Positions 18,045 to 47,596 of a stretch of 64,000 nucleotides of DNA are shown piece after piece. How positions within the stretch are numbered: the stretch's first letter is position 1; each line of letters begins with the position of its first letter. The DNA lies in the NCBI GenBank assembly GCA_036675025.1, contig JAKFFN010000101.1, positions 3,975 through 67,974 of the forward strand, in the 5' to 3' direction. The notes beneath the pieces are model-generated. The model was given only the letters and a program-made list of their open reading frames with translations. It had not been told where the DNA came from and searched no databases. The stretch comes from Candidatus Sumerlaeales bacterium. Its GTDB lineage: Bacteria; Sumerlaeota; Sumerlaeia; Sumerlaeales; Sumerlaeaceae. Both the position numbers and the translations under genes were made by a program.

Positions 18045-18382
18045 CAGTTGTAAAATGTTGGCGGAATCGTTTACTCATATACAAGAGATTTGTTGGGGGC
18101 CACAAACATTCCATTTGTGTGTTTCTGCGGTCGCTTAAAAGAAGGACCTGGGCTTGTCGCAAAAACATAAAAGTGAAAATCACCGGCCTACCACAACCCG
18201 GCGGCAAATTCCTAATTCTGCAAGTCGACGGCGAAGAGCCGCTCCCCGTCCCCCTCGGCGAGTAAGGCAGAAACGAATCCGGCGGTGCGATCGAACTCCA
18301 ATCGCACCGCGATACTCTCTCGCTAGGCTGAATCGACAGACCAATCACAAGGGGGCCACGCCCCATCGTTCTGCGCTTTTTC

Positions 18383-18438
18383 TTTCTGGTTTTTACTTTC
18401 TACTTTCTACTTTCTACGTTCTGCTTTCTACATTCTAC
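18383..18438. repeat. tandem heptanucleotide repeat (TTTCTAC)n, ~8 copies
   Basis: tttctgg tttttac tttctac tttctac tttctac gttctgc tttctac attctac. Abuts and overlaps the stop of the PhoD-like gene. Confidence 0.8.
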
Positions 18439-20864
18439 TACCCTTTAGCCACCTGATCAAACCCAAACGTCATCGGCCATCCCGCATACTGTTTCGCCTC
18501 CGGCGCGGCCGGGTCCGCGTCCCACCGCCAGCAGTGTAGGGTGTACTCGCGGGTATCGAGATCTACGTCAACTATGCCGTAGCCTTCCGCCTTCAGGTTG
18601 CGATCCCCGATTCCCTGGCCGCGCCCCTTAATGTGCTTGCGATACTCCTTAAAGGTTATCGACGGGTTCGCCACCGCCAGAACTCGCATCTTGTTGCCGA
18701 ATCCATCCTGGAAATCGCCCGTGTTGGGCGTTTCCCCGGCGTTTGCCAGCGGCTGAGCCGGCTCAAACCACCGTGTCCAACTCGTTGATCCCGCCGGACC
18801 GGAAAACTGGATCGGGCCATCCGTGTACGTATCATCGCCCAACCTTATTACCGACCCCAGGTGCTGATCGCCAGCCAGAATGAGTACGTTCGCATCGCGA
18901 AGCAGCCGCACCGCATGAATGCGCGCCAGCGGCGGATATCCGTTGGAATCGAAATCCACTACCGCAAGACCGTCAGGACTTGTCTGCGCACAACCCAGCA
19001 GCGTCGCAGTCAGGCAGATGCGCGCATCTGCATCCTTAACCTTCTGTCCCCATTCCTTAACAAACTTTTCCTGCCTATCACCCAGCAACTCTGGCACATG
19101 CATGTTCAGGCTTTCACCCTGGATCGGCGCCGTTTTAAACTTCCGATCTTCCAGCAGACAGAATTCCACGCCCCCATACTTGAACGCGCAATAGTAGACG
19201 CCAATTCCCTGCTGAACCGGCCGCGGGTCATACGGGTCCGGGTTATGCCCACATTGCGTCGCCTGAACCATGTTCACCCACGAAGCCGCACGTACGTAGC
19301 CGCCAAGGTCCTGGTTTCCATCCGGCGCCTGCCGTCCGCCGTTGCCCCAAAGATTGCCGTGGTAAACGTCGTGATCATCCACCAGCACGAGGGTCGGGCG
19401 ATCCCGTGTAATTTCCCGGTACGACCACAACCACAGGTAGTACTTGTACAGGTAATCAAATATCGGGTTTTCATCCCGCACCTTTGTTGTCGGATTTGTC
19501 TCGTAAAACTGATCCCCCACAAACGCCAGCATGTCCGGGTTGAGTTTCTTCGAGCCCTCTACGATCTCCGTGTAAGGCATGTAAATGCATTGGGGCGTGT
19601 AGCGTCCCAAGTCCTGTGAGTTCGGCAACTGCCTGCGTCCGCCGCCGCCGTCGAGATTCCGCGCTGCTGCGATGGTGCAGCTGTACAGCCCGATGCGAAG
19701 CTGCCGGCCTGCGTGGCGCGGGTCACGCCGCACCGTTCCTTCATAATAGGCTTTCCGCCCCTGCCCCGTGCCGTCGTCTTCATACGCCACCCGGTATTGC
19801 CAGTCCTTGCTGTCGTCCCAGTTGTCCAGACGAAAGGTCGCACAGTACCCTCCCGCAATCTCCTTCCGCGCGACTTCCCGCCAGGTCCCCTGCCCCGCTT
19901 CCCGCACCTCCAGAGTCACATGCTGGGGATCACTGGCAGAGATCGGCATCAGTTGCGCCGTCATCTTCATGACATTTCCATTTAGCGAAAACAAAGTACC
20001 CAGCACCGGACCAACCGCACGCTCCCCAGACCGTCCGACCTTGTCGCCATCTGCCGTAACATCTTTAAACCAGTATCGGGCGCCATCCGGACCCGAAGTC
20101 GCTGCGGAAACCAGCATGATCCCGCCGAGCAATTCCTCTTCCTTTACTCCTTCCAGCACCGCACTTGAGACAACAGCATCTCCATCCTTTGCCGTCAGCG
20201 TCAATGCATACTCCCCGCCGCCGGGCGCCACCTGCAGTGTCAGCGTCAATGGCTGACCGCTATACGCCACCGTACCAGCCATTTTTGTTGAAGGAAGTTC
20301 CTTATACTCCTGCCACTTGTCTTCGCTCGTGTGCTCCCGAAAAGCCGCTTTGCCGTCGGTATCCACCACGCAAAGCAAACCGCCGCCTTCGCCCGATGCT
20401 TTCTGCACGAGCGCTGCCGCCCGGTAATCAAGCTTGCCGGCGCCTGCGCCTACCAGGAATCCGCCAAAGCCTTTTCCCTTCGGAGAGATTCGGCCGAGAG
20501 TAGCCGTAATCGTTGCCGATCCTTCGCCCGGCTTCAGGTCGCGGGTTATCAAAGATACCGTCCGCAGATCCGGCCCCTTTTCGTCGGACACGCACTCAAT
20601 CCGGCCTTCTATCAGCCGCCAGTCTTGAAGCCTGTTCCCCCAAAAATGCGGGCCAAGCCACTCCCGCTGCACGTAGTCAGGCAAAGCTTTTGTGTCTTCC
20701 ACGGCATTAAGAAGCGCGGCATTTTCTTTCCCGACTGCTCCCCCTGCTGCACTGGTTTCACTACCAGTTGTCTCCGCTTTGGCTCCAGGAATAAGGACTG
20801 GAACAATAGCTCCTGCCATAGCCATTTTTAAAAAGTCACGACGACGAATTGGGAAATTGCTCAA
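18438..20864 (-). CDS. Tat-secreted PhoD-like metallophosphatase with large N-terminal extension
   Basis: RRRDFLKMAMAGA Tat signal (PhoD is a classic Tat substrate). AFVGDQFYE and LVDDHDVYHGN match the PhoD metallophosphatase motifs. Confidence 0.7.
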   Translation of the reverse strand: MSNFPIRRRDFLKMAMAGAIVPVLIPGAKAETTGSETSAAGGAVGKENAALLNAVEDTKALPDYVQREWLGPHFWGNRLQDWRLIEGRIECVSDEKGPDLRTVSLITRDLKPGEGSATITATLGRISPKGKGFGGFLVGAGAGKLDYRAAALVQKASGEGGGLLCVVDTDGKAAFREHTSEDKWQEYKELPSTKMAGTVAYSGQPLTLTLQVAPGGGEYALTLTAKDGDAVVSSAVLEGVKEEELLGGIMLVSAATSGPDGARYWFKDVTADGDKVGRSGERAVGPVLGTLFSLNGNVMKMTAQLMPISASDPQHVTLEVREAGQGTWREVARKEIAGGYCATFRLDNWDDSKDWQYRVAYEDDGTGQGRKAYYEGTVRRDPRHAGRQLRIGLYSCTIAAARNLDGGGGRRQLPNSQDLGRYTPQCIYMPYTEIVEGSKKLNPDMLAFVGDQFYETNPTTKVRDENPIFDYLYKYYLWLWSYREITRDRPTLVLVDDHDVYHGNLWGNGGRQAPDGNQDLGGYVRAASWVNMVQATQCGHNPDPYDPRPVQQGIGVYYCAFKYGGVEFCLLEDRKFKTAPIQGESLNMHVPELLGDRQEKFVKEWGQKVKDADARICLTATLLGCAQTSPDGLAVVDFDSNGYPPLARIHAVRLLRDANVLILAGDQHLGSVIRLGDDTYTDGPIQFSGPAGSTSWTRWFEPAQPLANAGETPNTGDFQDGFGNKMRVLAVANPSITFKEYRKHIKGRGQGIGDRNLKAEGYGIVDVDLDTREYTLHCWRWDADPAAPEAKQYAGWPMTFGFDQVAKG

Positions 20865-26935: not shown

Positions 26936-27027
26936 CACGCGGCGCAGCCGCCCTTCTCACCTTCTCACCCTCTCACCTTCTCACGGCGCGAAGCGCCCCT
27001 TCTCACCTTCCACGCGGCGCAGCCGCC
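26936..27027. repeat. compound repeat element: 17-bp direct repeats flanking (CTTCTCACC)x5 and a GGCGCGAAGCGCC palindrome
   Basis: CACGCGGCGCAGCCGCC at both ends. The internal nonamer-like copies are ccttctcac, cttctcacc, ctctcacc, ttctcac and ccttctcacc. Ends ~80 bp upstream of lysA. Confidence 0.7.
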
Positions 27028-27104
27028 GAAGCTGCATTTATCCACAAATCTCCCGCGCGTGCCGCGGTAGCACTTTCTGCTAATCGGCCAAGGAGACCAG
27101 AACA

Positions 27105-28382: not shown

Positions 28383-28400
28383 AGATGGATTTCAGCACGG

Positions 28401-28481
28401 TCCTACTGCTCCTATAAATCTTATTGGTCTTATAGGTCCTATTGGTCCTATTGGGCCTATTGGGCCTATTGGGCCTATTTG
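28401..28481. repeat. tandem nonamer repeat (YCCTATTGG)n, ~9 copies
   Basis: tcctactgc tcctataaa tcttattgg tcttatagg tcctattgg tcctattgg gcctattgg gcctattgg gcctatttg, immediately after the lysA stop. Confidence 0.8.
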
Positions 28482-38941: not shown

Positions 38942-39354
38942 ATTAAGACAGATTCCTCCTTGGCCGCTCCATCAGGAGTCCGGCACGGGCGAAGCAGGTT
39001 TTGGCAAAGGGTCCCGGGCACGCGCCATCCACAACGCTCACGCGCATAGACGCAAATCCTCCAAGGCACACGGGTTCCAAAGCAAGTAATCCTACCCCAG
39101 CCAGGCTTCCCATATTCTCAACAAAATTCGGGCCAACCGGGAGATGAAAGGCATCTCCCCTATGGAGTGGTGTTAGCCCTACCCTCCCCATCGACGAATG
39201 CAAGCATTTTTCTAACGGGGTCCGTCACCTTCTGCATCCAAGCTGCCCAGCCCTGCACTTGCGACCCTTGATACCGTGGCGAACTCTGGAGTAACTTGCT
39301 CCAGGCGCGAAACACGCAAAAGCTGTCGGCTGCGTCTTTCCTTGATTTCGAAAC

Positions 39355-39383
39355 TTGACAATTCCCCCTGCCTTGTTAAGTTT
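39355..39383 (+). promoter_or_regulatory. candidate sigma70-type promoter for the beta-helix gene
   Basis: TTGACA at 39355-39360. A weak -10-like TAAGTT ~16-17 nt downstream. In a 565-bp divergent region between rpoB and the beta-helix gene. Confidence 0.25.
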
Positions 39384-39507
39384 CTTTTGGTGGCCCGGAG
39401 CCCTCAGTTGCGACTCTGCAAAGACATCAAGAGACAGCCTCATGCTGAGACGCACAAGATTCAAATCTTTTGTTAGCAAATATCAAGCAAGTCAAAAGGA
39501 GTTCAGC

Positions 39508-40449
39508 ATGAAGCACATCATCATCGCGGTCTTACTGGCGTTTCCTGCAGGACAATCCTGGTCAGGCTCCCTTACTCCGCCTGGTCCTCCTGCACCTACA
39601 ATGAAGCCGCTCGACGACATAGAACCGCGCCGGCCCATTCGACTAGCTGATCTCCCCTTGTCGATAAACAGTTCGGGCAGCTTCTACCTGGCAGAAAACA
39701 TTAACTTTGCTACCCCCGGAGTAGTTGCCATATCTGTAAACGCTCCGGTTGTTACTATTGATCTGAATGGGTTTACCTTGAGCGGCCCGGGATCAAACAC
39801 TGGTGCAAGTGGCTTCGGCATCTCCGTAAATGCAGCCGACAAGCTCGTGGTTAAAAACGGTACCATTCAAAACTGGCGTGGAAATGCCATCTTCGCTTTT
39901 CCCGCCCTGGACTGCACAATTGACAACGTCACGGTTCAGCGGAATGGGCAGCACGGTATCTTTCTTACGACGGGGACGATAACAAACTCTACGGTTATCC
40001 GCAATGGTGACAATGGAATCTTGCAGGTTAATGGCAGCGCCATAGTCAAAAACAGCATCTGCTCTGATAACAGGCTTACCGGGATATCCTCTTCCAAAGG
40101 GAACATAATCATAGAGGATAACATCTGCAATGGCAATGGAGCAGGCGGCATCCTGGCTTCAGAGGCAAGCGGACGCATAATTGGCAATACCTGCACAGGC
40201 AACAATGACGGCCTACTGCTAGAAGGTTCTCAAAGCTATGTTGATGGTAACAGCGTCTATAATAATACCATGAACGGAATACGAAGCTATACGTTTATCT
40301 TCAAAGATGATCACTCCGTTGCCGTGAGAAACACAGCAGCAGGAAACGGCACAAACTACTCCTTCTCAACAACAACCAAATCTGGTCCTATCGTGACCAC
40401 CAACGGTGTTATCAGCAGTACAAATCCCTGGGCAAACTTTGTCCACTAA
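39508..40449 (+). CDS. secreted right-handed parallel beta-helix repeat protein (pectin-lyase fold, NosD-like PbH1 repeats)
   Basis: ATG after AAAAGGAG. Signal MKHIIIAVLLAFPAGQSWSGS. Repeated GNxCxGN/NGxxG turns (NICNGNGAGGIL, GNTCTGNNDGLLLEG). Confidence 0.75.
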   Translation: MKHIIIAVLLAFPAGQSWSGSLTPPGPPAPTMKPLDDIEPRRPIRLADLPLSINSSGSFYLAENINFATPGVVAISVNAPVVTIDLNGFTLSGPGSNTGASGFGISVNAADKLVVKNGTIQNWRGNAIFAFPALDCTIDNVTVQRNGQHGIFLTTGTITNSTVIRNGDNGILQVNGSAIVKNSICSDNRLTGISSSKGNIIIEDNICNGNGAGGILASEASGRIIGNTCTGNNDGLLLEGSQSYVDGNSVYNNTMNGIRSYTFIFKDDHSVAVRNTAAGNGTNYSFSTTTKSGPIVTTNGVISSTNPWANFVH

Positions 40450-40463
40450 AGAGGGTATCTGGA

Positions 40464-41003
40464 ATGAAACCGTCCACCCTTTTGGCAAGCCTGTCTTTCA
40501 CAGTCTTATTTCCATTACTCACCACAACTGCGGCATACGCCACTACCAACATCGATCCGGCATTTGTCGGCAAGAAGTTTGGCTGGAGCGAAAACGGCGG
40601 GTGGACGAATCTACAGGGCGACCTCGCCAATGGTGTGCATGTGGGCCTGGCGCACCTACAAGGCTTCGCGTGGCATGAGAACTTTGGCTGGATCAATTTC
40701 GGCAGTGGTAACCTGGCAGAAGAACAGCAGTACACGAATGCTACGCGCGATGACTTCGGGGTCAACATTGACACTGAGGGCAAGCTCTTCGGCTTTGCCT
40801 GGGGTGAAAACATCGGCTGGATATCTTTCGATACTCTCGCCGCAAGCGGAGCCCGGGTGTCTATAGTTTCCGCTACTGGCCGCTTCACCGGTCATGCCTG
40901 GTCGGAAAATGTAGGCTGGATTTCGTTCGATACAGTTGATCCTCTCCATGTTGCCCATACCCTCAGCGATACTGCCGCGAACGACTGGAACCTGTTCGAG
41001 TAG
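40464..41003 (+). CDS. secreted Trp-rich repeat protein (4 x G[FH]AWxENxGWIxF repeats), family unknown
   Basis: Signal peptide. Four tandem ~30-aa repeats (FGWSENGGWTNL, GFAWHENFGWINFG, GFAWGENIGWISFD, GHAWSENVGWISFD). Only 14 nt downstream of the beta-helix gene. Confidence 0.6.
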   Translation: MKPSTLLASLSFTVLFPLLTTTAAYATTNIDPAFVGKKFGWSENGGWTNLQGDLANGVHVGLAHLQGFAWHENFGWINFGSGNLAEEQQYTNATRDDFGVNIDTEGKLFGFAWGENIGWISFDTLAASGARVSIVSATGRFTGHAWSENVGWISFDTVDPLHVAHTLSDTAANDWNLFE

Positions 41004-41377
41004 AAGCTGGCCACACCTTAAAATAAGGGGACATCCAAGATAAGTATTAATGGTTAGGAGACAAGGAGATCTCCTACGGCGTAAGGTTGTGACTCCCCCC
41101 CCCCGTTAAATTTGTTCCCGATCTACCAAGTTGTGATTGGCTTTTTGTCTTCTGGTCTTAGTGGTGACAAGCTGACAGGCTTGCAGCCAGACAGGAAACT
41201 TAAATCTCCGCCGTACCCGCTTCTGTCAGCCCGGTCGGAAAATTCCTCATTGCCAAGGTGGACGACATTAACCTCTCCGGTGATCCAAACCCGTCAGACA
41301 ACGTGCTGGTTTCGGGCCGTTGTCTTAAGACGACCTGTCAAGCAAACCCTCACAATGCAAAGGCAGTACGGTTGAAA

Positions 41378-41665
41378 GCGACAACTAGGATAGCCCAAAT
41401 CAAAGTAACCGATCCGCCAGGATCGAACACCGCCGCCTTGGGTAGACGCCACCCTTCCGCCCCTGTCGCGAAGCGACAACTAAGATAGCCCAGGACAAGG
41501 TGAACGATCCGCCAGGATCGGACGCCGCCGTCCTGGGTAGACGCCACCCTTCCGCCCCCTGTCGCGAAGCGACAACTAAGATAGCCCAGGACAAGGTGAA
41601 CGATCCGCCAGGATCGGACGCCGCCGTCCTGGGTAGACGCCTCCTCCCGCCCCAGCCCCGGCAGG
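41378..41665. repeat. three tandem copies of a ~97-bp unit with nested inverted repeats (candidate structured RNA or REP-like element)
   Basis: Unit GCGACAactaagatagCCCAGGACaaggtgaacgatccgccaggatcggacgccgccGTCCTGGGtagacgccacccttccgcccccTGTCGCgaa. Copies B and C are identical for 73 nt and copy A is ~85% identical. Ends with a GCCCC-ggca-GGGGC hairpin. Confidence 0.75.
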
Positions 41666-41728
41666 GGCGATACCCATTCTTCCGCCAACACATAATCATC
41701 TTAGCCTCAAAATTCTCATTGCACAAGC

Positions 41729-43168
41729 GTGTCAGACCTAAAACTATGGTCGTCTTACCATTGTGTAATCTGGACTCTTTGCGTGGCTGAAAAAATCTCC
41801 ACATCCATTCCCGGCTTCATAGACCTGCTTCTGGATGCCGTCTGTATCGTAGACGAAGAAGGCCGATATGTCTACGTCAGTGCGGCCTACGAGCAGATTT
41901 TTGGTTACACGCCCGAGGAAATCATTGGCCGCAGGATGATCGATCTGGTGGCGCCGGAAGACCGCGAACGAACATTGGCTGCCGCCAATAACGTAATGGC
42001 TGGCAATTCCCATCTCCATTTTGAAAACCGTTACATCCGGAAAGACGGCCGCGTCGTCAACATCATGTGGTCAGCCCGCTGGTCCCAGGCAGACCGCCTT
42101 CGCATAGCTGTCGCGCGGGACATCACCGACCTTAAACACGCGGAGGCATTACAGTCTGCCACCTACGCCATTTCCGAAGCCGCACACACGGCCGAAGATC
42201 TTCCCGCGCTTTTCAAACAGGTCCAGGCAGTTCTCGCCCGTCTTCTCCCGGCTGACAACTTTGCTGTCGGGTTACTCGACGAAACCACCGGTAACCTCTC
42301 TCTCAAACACCTCGACACTAACAGTTTCCCGGCAGCGTATGCCGACATCGCCGCTTGTCGTACCCTATGCACATACGTAGCAGAAACCCACCTTCCGCTG
42401 CTTCTGACCCCACACGATAAAGATCACCCCATGTACCCGCTCCTGTCGCACCACGGCGAAGCGTGCTGGCTTGGCGTCCCACTTACGACCCACAACAAGA
42501 CTATTGGCGCCCTTGGCCTGATGAGCATTTCGGGAGACTGTCATTATACCGCCCGGCACAGAGACCTGCTCCAGTACGTGAGCACCCAGGTAGCCACCGC
42601 TATAGAACGCAAACAGCTTCACGAGCGGCTGCAATATCTTGCCCAGTATGATTCGCTTACAGGCCTTCCCAACCGGGCACTTCTGCATGATCGCCTGGAC
42701 CACGCCCTGGCTCTCGCCCGCAGGAATCACGGGAAACTGGCAGTTCTGTTTGTTGATCTGGATCAATTTAAATCTGTAAACGATCAGCTTGGCCATGCCG
42801 AAGGCGATGCGCTTTTGCAGGAAATTGCTTTGCGCCTGAAAAAGTGCGTCCGCGAATCTGACACCGTCGCACGCCTTAGCGGTGACGAATTTGTCATTAT
42901 ACTTGAGAGCCTGAAGGCGACCTCCATTTCTGACGATGCCGGTTCCAGTTCCACTGTTGGGGCTAATAAAATCATCTCGAAACTCAAAACATCAATCAAT
43001 GAACCCATCGTACTAGGCAGTCACACCATCAAGATGACGGCAAGTATCGGCCTGGCCCGGTTCCCCGAACATGGCGATACTCCAAATCAACTGCTAAAGC
43101 ACGCCGACAAGGCCATGTACCAGGCAAAGCGGCAACACCGGATTATCTACTCCGATCCGATTCATTAA
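41729..43168 (+). CDS. PAS-GAF-GGDEF diguanylate cyclase-like protein (SGDEF active-site variant)
   Basis: PAS (VCIVDEEGRYVYVSAAYEQIFGYTPEEIIGRRMIDLV). GGDEF domain with RLSGDEF in place of GG[DE]EF. Start uncertain. Confidence 0.8.
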   Translation: MSDLKLWSSYHCVIWTLCVAEKISTSIPGFIDLLLDAVCIVDEEGRYVYVSAAYEQIFGYTPEEIIGRRMIDLVAPEDRERTLAAANNVMAGNSHLHFENRYIRKDGRVVNIMWSARWSQADRLRIAVARDITDLKHAEALQSATYAISEAAHTAEDLPALFKQVQAVLARLLPADNFAVGLLDETTGNLSLKHLDTNSFPAAYADIAACRTLCTYVAETHLPLLLTPHDKDHPMYPLLSHHGEACWLGVPLTTHNKTIGALGLMSISGDCHYTARHRDLLQYVSTQVATAIERKQLHERLQYLAQYDSLTGLPNRALLHDRLDHALALARRNHGKLAVLFVDLDQFKSVNDQLGHAEGDALLQEIALRLKKCVRESDTVARLSGDEFVIILESLKATSISDDAGSSSTVGANKIISKLKTSINEPIVLGSHTIKMTASIGLARFPEHGDTPNQLLKHADKAMYQAKRQHRIIYSDPIH

Positions 43169-43176
43169 CCCACGCT

Positions 43177-43880
43177 TCTTCAGGCAACAAAAGCCCTCCC
43201 CGAAAACACACCCTTAGCCACCCCTTCCCAGGCAACAAAAGCCCCCCGAAAACACACCCTTATGGAGTGCTGGTGGCTTGCCACCGCTATGGAAAACCTG
43301 CCACCACGCGACACTGCGAAACCACCCGCCACCCCAGCAAGGCGCAATGCGCGCCCTGCGTCTGTCCTAAAAGGAACCAACCCATAACCGCCCCAGAAGA
43401 ACATACATGTTCGCCGTTCCCGAAGGAAACCAACCCATAATAGCCCCGGGTGAAACGGAAGGACCTCCGTTCCCGAAGGGAACCAACCCATAATAGCCCC
43501 GGGTGAAACCCGGGGTTTCGGATACCCCATAAACTGACTCCGAAGGAGTCCAACACTAAAGCGCCAAAAAGAAGTTTAACCCATCCCGACTTGTCCGACT
43601 TTTACACGCCTCCGCCCCCCGAAAACACACCCTTATGGAGTGCTGGTGGCTTGCCACCGCTATGGAAAACCTGCCACCACGCGACACTGCGAAACCACCC
43701 GCCACCCCAGCGAGGCGCAATGCGCGCCCTGCGTCTGTCCTAAAGGAACCAAACCATAACCGCCATAGAAGAACATACATGTTCGCCATTCCCGAAGGGA
43801 ACCAAACCATAATAGCCCCGGGTGAAACCCGGGTTTCGGATATCCCATAACCTGACTCCGAAGGAGTCGAACACAAACCG
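43177..43880. repeat. nested macro-repeat: two ~270-320-bp direct copies (period ~371 bp, ~95% identical) with internal ~50-bp sub-repeats and conserved hairpins
   Basis: CCCCGAAAACACACCCTTA occurs 3 times. ttcccgaagg(g)aaccaa(c/a)ccataatagccccgggtgaaac occurs 3 times. Hairpins CCCCGGG-tgaaa-CCCGGGG+TTTCGG and GACTCC-gaa-GGAGTC are conserved in both copies. Confidence 0.8.
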
Positions 43881-44133
43881 CGATTATTCCAGGAACCGTT
43901 GGTCTCATTCGATGCCAACGCTATCCGGTGACGCGCAACGCCTGTACCTTTGCCGAGCGTCGCTATGGCAATCCAGAATCTGTTTTTGCGCCTTTTGTGC
44001 TTTTTTGCGGCTAAGATTAAGGGTCGTTAAGCGTCCCTAAGGGTCATTGCGGGAATTCCCCTGGCGGTTTCGTCATGCTCAAATGCGTGCATTCGTTAAA
44101 AAACCGTACCAGCCAAAAGGAGAAACGCCCGCC

Positions 44134-45402
44134 ATGCTCACCTTGCACCCCATTTCCGCCAGGCACTTCGATAGTTATGTACTTAATACATCGACCCGCC
44201 GACTTGATGTTGTTAGACTTACGGAATTAACCTCAAGTTTTTTTCGCCCCTGTGGAAAACTTAAAAAACTTTTTTCGAAATTAAATCGCGTTCTTACAAA
44301 CGTAACCACTGTAAAATCAACGCTGGAACCCGTTATAAATCCGTTTTGGCCCACATTCGCAACACTAACAAAATCAACGCTGAAGGCCGTCAAAAATCCG
44401 AATAATTCTTACAAAGCATATTTCAAAGATTTTCCACAACTTCCACAACTTCCCATTGATTGCTCTGCCATCGTAAAGGTCTATAGCTCGGTGCATCAGC
44501 CAAACTTCCATAGCTTCTGCTGGCGACAGGATCATCTCCGATTTGAACTCCAATCCGACGATCCTGCCGTAGTCTCCCGCGTCCGCGAAGTTTTACGCTT
44601 CTGGAACGCCGAAGCACCACCCGTGTCGGGAGACGAAACACAGTCCTTGCGTCCATCCCTGGTATCCACTGTAACTCTTGCCTCCGATGGCTATCACTTT
44701 ACCGGAAGCCAGGCAACGGAACCTGTTAAGCTGAAAGACATTGCCGCCGTAATCCGGGCCGCTGAGACCGATGCCGCCATTGCAATTCTTAACCAGACTG
44801 ATCACTTTCTCACAGTCCACGGCGCCCTGCTCGCGCGGGATGATGATGCGGTTTTAGTTGTCGGTCCGTCCCAGTCTGGCAAGTCTACCACCTCCTGCGC
44901 TCTTTGGGCCGCCGGCTGGCAGCTGCTGGCGGATGACGTTACGATCCTTCACCCGACCGATGCCACCGCCTCTCCCCTGCTGCGCCGCGTAAGTCTGCGC
45001 CACCCGAGCCGCCAGCTTCTCGGCGATGCGTTCTGGCAGCGCATGACGGCAGCAAGCACCTGCGACCCGACCCCGGAAGGTTACGTGTTCCACCCCGATG
45101 AGATCGAGGGAATATCCCGCGCCCGCAGCGCGCGCCTGCGTGCCATCATATTCCTGCGTCGCCTGGGGGCCAATGATCCCGGACCGGGCCGCCTCTTACC
45201 TGTTATTGAAGCGCAGGCGCTGCTCGCCCTCTCGCCCTACACCAATGTGATCCGCCACGGAGGCATGGGCGAAGCGATGACGCGCCTGGCGCCGCTGCTG
45301 AACCAGGTGCCCTGCTACGATATGGGCCGTGGCTCGCTGCCCGACATGGTGGAAACCATCGAGACCCTGCTTACGCCGGAGGCTGCCTTTGAGCGCCTGT
45401 AG
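44134..45402 (+). CDS. HprK-related P-loop kinase (RiPP/lasso-type tailoring kinase family) with low-GC N-terminal extension
   Basis: VLVVGPSQSGKSTTSCALWAAGWQLLADD resembles the HprK/P Walker-A-to-ADD block. It lacks the HprK RGLG signature. ATG 44134 has AAAAGGAG SD. Alternative GTG start at 44491 gives ~303 aa. The track TTG at 44047 is rejected. Confidence 0.6.
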   Translation: MLTLHPISARHFDSYVLNTSTRRLDVVRLTELTSSFFRPCGKLKKLFSKLNRVLTNVTTVKSTLEPVINPFWPTFATLTKSTLKAVKNPNNSYKAYFKDFPQLPQLPIDCSAIVKVYSSVHQPNFHSFCWRQDHLRFELQSDDPAVVSRVREVLRFWNAEAPPVSGDETQSLRPSLVSTVTLASDGYHFTGSQATEPVKLKDIAAVIRAAETDAAIAILNQTDHFLTVHGALLARDDDAVLVVGPSQSGKSTTSCALWAAGWQLLADDVTILHPTDATASPLLRRVSLRHPSRQLLGDAFWQRMTAASTCDPTPEGYVFHPDEIEGISRARSARLRAIIFLRRLGANDPGPGRLLPVIEAQALLALSPYTNVIRHGGMGEAMTRLAPLLNQVPCYDMGRGSLPDMVETIETLLTPEAAFERL

Positions 45403-45403
45403 C

Positions 45404-47596
45404 ATGACCCGCCCGGCGGTAGCACCCACCATCGCCATTCTCGTGACCCGCCGGTGCAACATGACCTGCAGCCACTGCAGCGTGGAGAGCGCGCCGCGGG
45501 TGAACACACCGGATCCCACCGAAGAAGAACTCTACCGCCTGATCCGCGAATCGGCTGCAGCCGGCGTCCACGCTGTGCAGTTTACCGGCGGCGAACCCAT
45601 GATGCGCCAGAAACTGGTTTTGCAACTCATGGAAAAAGCTCACCGCCTCGGCCTCGCCAGCGGCCTGACCACCAACGGCTTCTGGGGCAAGAACCCGCGC
45701 ACCGCCCGGACGACGCTGCGCCACATGATTCGCCACGGCCTGCAGTACATGACCGTCAGCTATGACCGTTACCATGCGGAGTTCATGGGCCCGCAGCCCA
45801 TCCTGAACATCGCATCCATCGCCCGCGACCTCGGTTTCTTCTTTAACGTGAACGTGACCCGCACGCTCCACGATGAGAACCTGGACGAGTACGCCCGCCT
45901 CTTTGGCAATCTTCCCAATGTGCGCATGCGTCTTTACGATGTGCAGCCCGTCGGACGTGCCCGCAACTTTGATCTGCCAAATCTCCGCGCTGAAACCGAA
46001 GGTTTTTGTAATGCCGCAGCGCAGGCCACCTTCACTGAAGATGGGCGGATGATCGCGTGCAATGGCCCGGCTTATTTTGACTCAGCTGAATCGCCCCGGC
46101 ACATTGGAGACACCCGCAGCGAGTCCGTTGCTGATCTGCTCCGCCGTCACTGGGAAGATCCCATCCTGGATACCATCCGCACCTTTGGCCCTGCCGGCCT
46201 GCGCGATGAACTGAAAAAAGAGGAGCAGTTTGCTCCAGCCTTCGACCGTCGCTTCGCCGGACAGTGCGACCTGTGCCAATGCATTACCACGAACCCGGCA
46301 ATGGTCAGCCACCTGCGCAGCCGCCTGGCTGACACCCGCCACCAGGCCATGCGCGTGGCAAAGTGGAGCCTGATAAATGCCGCCCGCGCCTCCGGCGAAC
46401 TCACCCGCGACCACGCGAATGGACCTGGCATCTGCAGCGTCTTCTATGATAGAACTACCACCGGCCAGTGGCCTGCTCATGCGGAAAAGCTGTTTGGCCG
46501 CGCCGATATCGATTGGGACCATATCGCCCACTACCTGGCCGGGTGTGGCCTGGCTAATGCGCTTTCCACGGCAGCAGGTCAGCAGGAGCTGGCACGCTGG
46601 GCCCCCGGTTATTTTACCGAGACACTACAGAAGCGCGCGATGCGGGATGCTCTGCGGGAACTCAGCCATCGCGAAACATTCGCTAAGCTGCACGAGGCGC
46701 TGAGCGCCCTGAACCTGCGAGGGGTGCTGCTAAAAGGGGCCGCGCTCTACCTGGGTGAGAAGGCCGCAAACATGAACCCGCTGCGCATCCCGGGTGATAT
46801 TGATCTATGGATCGAAAATCCCGCGGCAGCCGCGAAACTGCGCCGTTATCTGATCGAAGATGGCTTCAAGGGCGACCCCGATGCGCCGCGAACCGGACCC
46901 CATCACCTGGCGCCTATTGTCTGGAGAAACTCTCTCGTCGAAATCCATACCGGCGTGATGCCTTCTTTCTGGGGACTGCCGGAAAAGCAGATGTCGGCGG
47001 ATGCCCGGCCACTCCCCGGATGGTCCCCTTTCTTTACGCTTTCGCCGGAAGACATGCTACTCCACGAAGTCATCCACAGCACCACTCACCTGTACAGTTT
47101 CGGCCTGAAGCTGGCGATCGATATTTTCCGGATACAGCGCCTGGTTGCAGGTGACAACTCGCTCTCTGCAGCCATTGATTGGCAGACGGTAATTAGTCGC
47201 GCCAATGCCACCCATTGCCCCATGGCCTTCTGGATTCCGCTGGTGGCGCTCAGCCGCGGCCTGGCAGGCCAGCTGCCGGTTCCGCCAGAAGTGCTGGACC
47301 AGGCTCCGCATGGAGAACGTTTCCGCAGGCTGGGCCTTGTGGCGTATAAACGGCTCTTCACAGCCACCGACGATGCCGATAAGATGAACCCGTTTACTCG
47401 AAACGGCATCTTCCTGATGCTGCACAACGGCACGATCAGTCGCCTGAGGTATTTAGCAGAACTGACGCGCGACGACGCGGCCGAATCGCGCCGCACCCAC
47501 CTGGGCAGCTCCGGCGGCCAGGGTTGGCGCAACCTGAAAACTCACCTGCGCCACGCCTGGCTAGACCTGCGCACCTACCGCCGGGCTATCAAGTAA
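45404..47596 (+). CDS. radical SAM / SPASM-like domain protein fused to PF14907-type nucleotidyltransferase
   Basis: ATG 1 nt after the kinase stop. CNMTCSHC radical-SAM cluster motif. Cys-rich auxiliary region (C-x16-C, CDLCQC). The C-terminal ~350 aa resemble the uncharacterised nucleotidyltransferase family found in lasso-peptide clusters (GDIDLWI..). Confidence 0.75.
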   Translation: MTRPAVAPTIAILVTRRCNMTCSHCSVESAPRVNTPDPTEEELYRLIRESAAAGVHAVQFTGGEPMMRQKLVLQLMEKAHRLGLASGLTTNGFWGKNPRTARTTLRHMIRHGLQYMTVSYDRYHAEFMGPQPILNIASIARDLGFFFNVNVTRTLHDENLDEYARLFGNLPNVRMRLYDVQPVGRARNFDLPNLRAETEGFCNAAAQATFTEDGRMIACNGPAYFDSAESPRHIGDTRSESVADLLRRHWEDPILDTIRTFGPAGLRDELKKEEQFAPAFDRRFAGQCDLCQCITTNPAMVSHLRSRLADTRHQAMRVAKWSLINAARASGELTRDHANGPGICSVFYDRTTTGQWPAHAEKLFGRADIDWDHIAHYLAGCGLANALSTAAGQQELARWAPGYFTETLQKRAMRDALRELSHRETFAKLHEALSALNLRGVLLKGAALYLGEKAANMNPLRIPGDIDLWIENPAAAAKLRRYLIEDGFKGDPDAPRTGPHHLAPIVWRNSLVEIHTGVMPSFWGLPEKQMSADARPLPGWSPFFTLSPEDMLLHEVIHSTTHLYSFGLKLAIDIFRIQRLVAGDNSLSAAIDWQTVISRANATHCPMAFWIPLVALSRGLAGQLPVPPEVLDQAPHGERFRRLGLVAYKRLFTATDDADKMNPFTRNGIFLMLHNGTISRLRYLAELTRDDAAESRRTHLGSSGGQGWRNLKTHLRHAWLDLRTYRRAIK

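Follow-up and report, generated by a model that had tools for sequence, protein, structure and literature searches.

A minisatellite-like nested tandem array of candidate Acido-Lenti-1-type double-hairpin modules in a Sumerlaeota genome

The Acido-Lenti-1 motif (RF01687) is a structured element that occurs in multiple copies, described in Acidobacteria, Lentisphaerae and a few more taxa, with no assigned function (Weinberg 2010, PMC2864571). It opens with a CC...GG hairpin, continues through a linker whose first bases are CUA(U/A)U and closes with a short hairpin that has a UUC-type loop. Coordinates in the supplement place the Lentisphaera members in tandem arrays whose periods run from 74 to 200 nt, and the supplementary flanks contain Lentisphaera macro-units in which a UAUGCCGUACCUUCGG-type short-hairpin sub-element occurs more than once (PMC2864571). 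On the function of the motif, the literature searched, including the description linked from Rfam, contained nothing beyond the remark that it is "sometimes near group II introns". The present work concerns a repeat region (array 1) in a 64,000-nucleotide stretch of a Candidatus Sumerlaeales genome (contig JAKFFN010000101.1, positions 3,975 to 67,974), referred to here as the window, where it lies between a gene encoding a PAS-GAF-GGDEF protein and a kinase/radical S-adenosylmethionine (SAM) gene cluster. The analysis confirmed the repeat and showed it to be non-coding DNA with an ordered structure. We consider it somewhat probable that nested tandem copies of Acido-Lenti-1-type double-hairpin modules make up a minisatellite-like array in this Sumerlaeota genome, cis-acting if functional.

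On the minus strand, the 53-nt subunits of array 1 form double-hairpin modules, in which a hairpin rich in GC is joined through a conserved single-stranded linker (CUAUUAUGG) to a second hairpin whose loop is UUC (Table 1). The motif architecture, an 8-bp hairpin that starts with CC and ends with GG, a linker starting with CUA and a 5-bp hairpin with a 3-nt loop, could be read on this strand with the departures listed below. The likeness to Acido-Lenti-1 lies in two hairpins, the first opening with CC, closing with GG and leading into CUA(U/A)U, and in a linker of ~12 nt before a second hairpin of 5-6 bp with a UUC-type triloop. The motif is multi-copy and typically arranged in tandem arrays of high internal identity, with stems covarying between loci; near-identity within an array and differences between loci were found here too, and the published Lentisphaera flanks contain nested macro-repeats of the same style. 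A second array, upstream of the GGDEF gene, carries a hairpin 2 (GUCGCUUCGCGAC) identical to that of several Koribacter seeds. The modules depart from the published motif in the 14-nt linker and 6-bp hairpin 2 of array 1, in the 33-nt structured insertion within the hairpin-1 loop of the second array, in the 53-nt subunit period, which is below the published range, and in the host phylum (Sumerlaeota/BRC1), which lies outside the range described. The match to Acido-Lenti-1 names the element without explaining its function.

A scan against Rfam with Infernal, proposed in the original prediction for this DNA, returned no family at its gathering score; a sub-threshold match to RF01687 did emerge. 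This was the best match in a permissive search of 1.2 kb (43468-43515, minus strand, 19.4 bits, E=0.1). Taken alone, the match is at noise level, and it was the published seed alignment that made the borderline lead worth testing. A covariance model was rebuilt from the 69 distinct published seed sequences, and the whole window was searched without filters. The top match in the 64 kb was again 43468-43515 on the minus strand (18.2 bits, E=0.006). The next matches, both partial, fell on the minus strand of the second array (41482-41537 and 41578-41633; 12.6 and 10.2 bits), with matches to hairpin 2 beside them at 41465-41477 and 41561-41573.

Because Infernal heavily penalises a long loop insertion, a flexible profile was written with position- and pair-specific log-odds from the 69 seeds, in which the hairpin-1 loop could range from 3 to 45 nt and the linker from 10 to 16 nt. 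The seeds themselves scored 33.6-52.2 bits under this profile. Two modules of the second array scored 38.3 bits each, within the seed range, and two modules of array 1 scored 29.2 and 28.8 bits, under it. The next best score in the window, on either strand, was 18.7 bits; 15 dinucleotide shuffles of the window gave maxima of 17.1-22.6 bits, and 260 other loci (1.89 Mb, searched on both strands for 3.8 Mb) gave a maximum of 22.8 bits, with none reaching 25 bits. Each part of the module (stems, CUA linker and UUC loop) added to the scores. The most fitting label for array 1 is that of a divergent variant, in a phylum new to the family, of a motif family that is known but unexplained; it is a modest extension and not a new system.

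Several points weigh against this assignment. The 19.4-bit match lies below the gathering score of 37 bits for RF01687 and so outside formal membership; when the full 64-kb window was compared with Rfam, no family reached its gathering score and RF01687 was not listed even at E<=10. Unrelated Rfam matches of 18-25 bits were ordinary in searches of 64-69 kb (the window and the loci of relatives). The freedoms of the flexible profile were chosen after the modules had been seen, although the null sets were scored by exactly the same rules. Since the four scoring modules comprise two pairs of recent duplicates, they count as only two independent observations. The profile found no module in ~120 kb of other Sumerlaeota DNA, and the modules were seen at two loci within the 64 kb of the genome that was scanned. 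Folding z-scores (-2.2 to -6.0) favoured the plus strand, an advantage that may reflect poor folding of the C/A-rich shuffles. Wobble-versus-mismatch counts favoured the minus strand weakly, by 4 to 1. Only the motif match is orientation-specific, for the minus strand, and the other evidence on strand conflicts.

The anatomy of array 1 is that of nested tandem repeats of ~48, 53 and 373 nt within one another. The original prediction described two direct copies of ~95% identity about 371 bp apart. Both were recovered, with a start-to-start distance of 373 nt and a 49-nt unique spacer between them; 43241-43456 and 43614-43828 were 96.3% identical over 216 aligned nt, and 43467-43564 and 43786-43881 were 91.8% identical over 98 aligned nt. 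The internal duplication of ~50 bp ascribed to copy 1 proved to be an extra 53-nt subunit, detected by Tandem Repeats Finder (TRF) and present as an indel in the macro-copy alignment; the counterpart of the 53-nt array in copy 2 spans 43742-43828. At the left end of the macro-repeat, 43170-43209 and 43218-43257 were 75% identical, adding a third nesting level. As predicted, a 19-bp motif occurred a third time: the 19-mer CCCCGAAAACACACCCTTA was found at 43198, 43244 and 43617 and nowhere else, with a chance expectation of zero. The 15-mer GGAACCAAMCCATAA occurred five times in the window, always within the repeat region, and none of 100 shuffles gave five.

Table 1. Coordinates of the repeats, modules and flanking genes in the window. 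A dot marks features given without a strand.
Feature	Position	Strand	Description
Macro-copy 1	43241-43564 (324 nt)	-	Two halves: 43241-43370, highly conserved, and a module-bearing remainder of three 53-nt subunits
Macro-copy 2	43614-43881 (268 nt)	-	Layout of copy 1 with only two 53-nt subunits
Partial third copy, left end of macro-repeat	43170-43216	.	Includes the third 19-mer (43198-43216)
53-nt subunit array within copy 1	43371-43500	-	TRF period 53, 2.5 copies
Module, copy 1	43469-43515	-	Hairpin 1 CCCCGGG-UUUCA-CCCGGGG; linker CUAUUAUGGGUUG; hairpin 2 GUUCCC-UUC-GGGAAC
Module, copy 2	43788-43834	-	Rebuilt covariance model 10.1 bits; flexible profile 28.8 bits
Truncated module, copy 1	43416-43462	-	5' arm of hairpin 1 lost at duplication junction; linker intact
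Hairpin GACTCC-GAA-GGAGTC	43536-43550 (copy 1); 43854-43868 (copy 2)	.	Followed on the minus strand by AGUUUAUGGGG
Second tandem array	41365-41653	-	Three units of ~96 nt, two 99% identical to each other, the third 76%
Best module of second array	41560-41633	-	CCCAGGAC-(33-nt hairpin-forming insert)-GUCCUGGG, CUAUCUUAGUU, GUCGC-UUC-GCGAC; flexible profile 38.3 bits
PAS-GAF-GGDEF gene	41729-43168	+	Between the two arrays
HprK-related/ScmC-like kinase gene	44491-45402	+	Homology-supported start GTG 44491

The two hairpins reported for both copies were likewise present. The first, CCCCGGG-TGAAA-CCCGGGG, lies at 43497-43515 in copy 1 and at 43816-43833 in copy 2, where it is one G shorter; the TTTCGG that follows it had been called terminator-like, but it is not a T-run and was not marked by the terminator scan. 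The second, GACTCC-GAA-GGAGTC, looks like a diverged fourth subunit, given the sequence AGUUUAUGGGG after it on the minus strand. The placement of the repeat immediately upstream of the kinase gene needs correction, as it ends ~250 nt before the annotated start at 44134 and ~610 nt before the GTG at 44491. Of the three explanations first offered, a satellite-like element came closest to what was found, namely nested tandem structured modules that are absent at the kinase gene of the relatives L013 and L259. The double-hairpin anatomy of the minus strand, its likeness to Acido-Lenti-1 and the second array were missed. The units are contiguous and near-identical, without variable spacers between them, and an array of clustered regularly interspaced short palindromic repeats (CRISPR) was rejected on this ground.

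Within the array, pairing and linker are retained in different ways. The truncated module of copy 1 has the second hairpin GUUUCC-UUC-GGGAAC, in which pairing is kept through a U-G wobble. The remaining subunits retain a UUAUGGG linker between differing hairpins (GAACAU-GUAU-GUUC, GUUCC-UUUU-AGGAC and GACUCC-UUC-GGAGUC). A G-to-U change in the linker is found in both subunits of copy 2 and is absent from all three subunits of copy 1. Substitutions between the macro-copies were unevenly spread, with 1 in the 130 nt of the module-free half versus 11 in the 138 nt of the module half (Fisher p=0.0055). The shared linker change and the uneven substitutions point to gene conversion, selection, or both.

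The second array had gone unflagged until the whole-window covariance-model search brought it to light. The module listed in Table 1 recurs there unchanged at 41464-41537 and in degenerate form at 41368-41442. Hairpin 1 of the third, diverged unit has one G-C pair turned into A-U, another turned into G-U and one pair broken. With array 1 it brackets the GGDEF gene, the modules lying on the minus strand in both. No similarity between the two arrays was detected by blastn; identity within them is 96% and 99%, respectively.

High identity within each array and none between the two indicate that each locus expands locally, and an architecture shared between the loci and across phyla implies some constraint. 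It is thus, to our judgement, a little likelier than even that this Sumerlaeota genome carries a dispersed module family in which each locus expands locally. Replication slippage or unequal recombination would expand the arrays, and gene conversion would homogenise them. If functional, they would most likely, though our confidence in this is low, be cis-acting structured elements comparable to the repetitive extragenic palindromic (REP) sequences and bacterial interspersed mosaic elements (BIME), with effects on transcript ends or stability, or with a role in insulation from antisense transcription.

In enterobacteria, REP and BIME elements have cis effects on mRNA stability and attenuate transcription; REPs occur as hundreds of dispersed copies, usually in alternating orientation, and are tied to RAYT transposases. 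The Sumerlaeota arrays resemble them in being intergenic, hairpin-forming, repeated, non-coding, strain-variable and clustered into composite arrays, but here the units run head-to-tail in a single orientation and two loci are known. Type III toxin-antitoxin systems, too, have a structured RNA unit repeated directly in tandem ahead of a protein gene; in them, ToxI units of ~34-45 nt directly precede the gene for the ToxN/AbiQ endoribonuclease. The neighbours here, in contrast, are the GGDEF and kinase genes, to both of which the proposed RNA strand is antisense. A ToxIN-like system was rejected, no ToxN-like domain being found in the adjacent genes.

The Acido-Lenti-1-type modules, if confirmed in Sumerlaeota, would broaden the range of the family. 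The Rfam model probably under-detects it, because the modules fall below its threshold and an insertion of 33 nt is tolerated in one type of them. The natural unit would be the nested tandem array and not the single 46-nt motif, which would offer a handle for phylogenetic profiling of partner proteins. A bolder version, which we think improbable, is that Acido-Lenti-1-type arrays form a multi-phylum tandem class of structured RNA (or single-stranded DNA) with a dedicated partner, for example through processing into unit-length small RNAs (sRNAs) or recognition by a mobile-element or defence enzyme. If so, the arrays of like orientation bracketing a cyclic di-GMP signalling gene might reflect cassette-like mobility or antisense control.

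Among the alternatives, neutral DNA survives best. The region would then be a recent local duplication of spacer, its likeness to Acido-Lenti-1 a coincidence, since GC-rich and C-UUC-G hairpins are generic. The sub-threshold Rfam score is compatible with this, as are several other intergenic tandem repeats in the window and the lack of a homologue in the collections searched. An exact-pattern scan of 185,579 species genomes, the window's own genome not among them, gave 12 single matches versus ~17 estimated by chance, and a metagenome scan, with unrelated repeats among the matches listed, was a weak negative. A blastn search of the region against 258 loci gave no real match, and a distant blastn search of plasmids and phages gave none; in viral contigs the 19-mer had 0 matches and the 15-mer was found at chance number. 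The comparison with relatives suggested at the outset was run and recovered no such spacer at the kinase gene of L013 or L259, the two relatives in which the gene upstream of the kinase was readable. However, two sequence-unrelated arrays within 64 kb fit one profile on the same strand, at 6-15 bits over the maximum of the control (3.8 Mb) and of the shuffles. The sequence-specific CUA linker adds to the score beyond the stems, and the substitutions between copies are not evenly spread (p=0.0055). We regard coincidental neutral repeats as unlikely.

One match of the pattern searches fell in a type I-E-like CRISPR array of a Candidatus Binatia metagenome-assembled genome (L005, OZ242288.1, 5855-5882). 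The end of the CRISPR repeat and the first 21 nt of a spacer matched the module linker and stem at 20/21 (AACCCATAATAGCCCC.GGTG). This match is probably due to chance, because the pattern forced 14 nt and the remaining spacer was unmatched.

Less probable again are two tandem trans-acting sRNA genes, on either strand, for example a protein sponge displaying UUAUGGG (minus strand) or GGA (plus strand). The copies are well conserved, one half of 130 nt being 99% identical, and rich in hairpins with conserved single-stranded linkers, and on the plus strand GGA shows mild enrichment (15 versus 8.4±2.5 in shuffles, p ~0.009). The GGA triplets, however, lie within stems and not in loops. A promoter scan of 42900-44400 found no sigma-70-like site on either strand, and a terminator scan of the same interval found only two weak minus-strand sites inside the repeat, fewer than in shuffles. 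No tRNA or tmRNA was found by the corresponding scan, neither Csr/Rsm nor any other sRNA family matched at threshold, and what lies between the copies is 49 nt of unique spacer and not a repeated promoter. The duplicated small-RNA genes first proposed were accordingly not borne out. Since neither promoter nor terminator frames the units, independent trans-acting sRNA genes would be less likely than a cis role. CsrB/RsmZ-type sRNAs share the wealth of short hairpins and the repetition of a short motif along a single RNA, but their GGA is in loops, unlike here. A Csr/Rsm sponge was rejected for want of an Rfam match, a promoter and a terminator, and because GGA falls inside GAAGG(A/G) stem halves.

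A transcript of the plus strand offers a further alternative, in which the repeat belongs to the 3' untranslated region (UTR) of the GGDEF gene or to the leader of the kinase/radical-SAM genes, with C-rich, G-poor stretches loading Rho and the hairpins acting as pause or stability elements. The flanking genes are all on the plus strand, which is strongly C over G and A over T, with a GC skew down to -0.35, and which has the better folding z-scores given above. The negative GC skew also covers the neighbouring coding regions, however, the gain in z-score may stem from the shuffles, as already noted, and the motif match is specific to the minus strand. Relatives have an 82-bp gap at this place or no GGDEF gene. 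A 3'UTR or terminator module of the GGDEF gene, as originally worded, found no support, the hairpin having no U-tract and the motif that it resembles being on the opposite strand. On balance, a plus-strand UTR is very unlikely.

It would be surprising if the repeats acted as DNA, in an iteron- or operator-like array of protein-binding sites in which TTATGGGTTGG recurs every 53 bp, or approximately five helical turns. An 11-mer core does recur five times, with 53-bp phasing within the copies, but no replication or partition gene is adjacent and no cognate regulator is obvious. The second array differs in period (96 nt) and in linker yet keeps the hairpin architecture, which argues for structure and not for a shared DNA site. 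A sigma-54 promoter, a retron, an integron attC site, the terminal inverted repeats of a miniature inverted-repeat transposable element and a riboswitch were dropped on reading the sequence, their defining features or neighbour genes being absent.

The prediction that no convincing protein is encoded agreed with the searches. Eight open reading frames (ORFs) on both strands of the region contained no Pfam domain. A 120-aa minus-strand ORF of copy 2, compared with 5.8 billion proteins, matched only the paralogous copy-1 frame on the same contig; the two are 64% identical as proteins against 92-96% for the DNA of the copies, because indels shift the frame. The 41-aa ORF (43262-43387) is indeed broken by a 1-nt indel between the copies. 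Its copy-2 counterpart (43635-43850) is 71 aa long with a divergent C-terminus, owing to the 1-nt deletion at 43369, and no Shine-Dalgarno sequence precedes the ATG of the 41-aa ORF. Repeats encoding small peptides, such as precursors of ribosomally synthesised and post-translationally modified peptides for the downstream enzymes, are close to refuted: the region does lie upstream of a YydG-like radical-SAM/ScmC-like kinase pair and the ORFs share an N-terminal segment of 36 aa with one synonymous difference, but the ATG has no ribosome-binding site, the frameshift alters the C-terminus, the Pfam and protein searches gave no homologue, and the region is missing from relatives that have this enzyme pair.

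A 116-aa ORF of copy 1 (43180-43530, minus strand) is present as a protein in an NCBI-derived collection (P0016) and so seems to have been annotated as a gene. It is very probably a spurious gene call, since its only relative is the frame-shifted paralogous ORF of copy 2.

Homologues of its rpoB assign the genome to the family Sumerlaeaceae of Candidatus Sumerlaeota (BRC1). The GGDEF gene precedes array 1, and downstream the gene order is kinase, YydG-like radical-SAM protein fused to NTP_transf_5, and Ppx. The open frame of the kinase reaches back to 44047, and its annotated start is at 44134. Kinase homologues measure only 290-331 aa, and their alignment to the annotated protein (422 aa) begins at residue ~127. 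These short homologues, with the start at GTG 44491, leave ~1.3 kb between the GGDEF and kinase genes (43169-44490). The 1.3-kb gap before the kinase/radical-SAM cluster is repeat DNA and not the site of a missing precursor gene. In the relative L013, the GGDEF gene and the kinase gene are only 82 bp apart; in L259, whose rpoB is 91% identical, the kinase gene is directly divergent from rpoB. A segment of ~5.6 kb (39136-44750) has no counterpart in L259, the closest relative with a long contig, and is a variable region next to a core gene. Its contents are a beta-helix/NosD-like gene, a 179-aa ORF and the GGDEF gene, together with both arrays.

The interval 44047-44490 has 125 codons in the kinase frame with 0 stops, versus 8 and 8 in the other frames (P ~0.0014). 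Its GC content is 0.41, and it has no counterpart in any kinase homologue. A direct repeat of 31 nt occurs twice in it (44313-44343 and 44370-44400), as do 2.4 copies of TTCCACAAC (44432-44453). The interval may encode an N-terminal extension or fused leader specific to the lineage, or it may be regulatory DNA whose frame is open by chance. No similarity was found between this extension and a small ORF upstream of the L015 kinase gene. The ScmC/HprK-like kinase and the YydG-like radical-SAM/NTP_transf_5 protein (44491-47596 in the window) form a gene pair conserved across the relatives that the kinase search recovered (L013, L014, L015, L018 and L259). The pair looks like a peptide-modification cassette, for which no precursor gene was identified.

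Elsewhere in the window, an intergenic array at 26939-27030 has, on the minus strand, the GC-rich hairpins GCGGC-UGC-GCCGC and GGCGC-UUC-GCGCC alternating with GUGAGAAG octamer repeats (TRF: CCTTCTCA x4.1). This family is distinct from the Acido-Lenti-1-like modules. Tandem repeats of short period were also found, with nine copies of GGTCCTATT at 28399-28479 and 8.3 copies of CTTTCTA at 18382-18439. This stretch of the genome seems unusually rich in tandem repeats.

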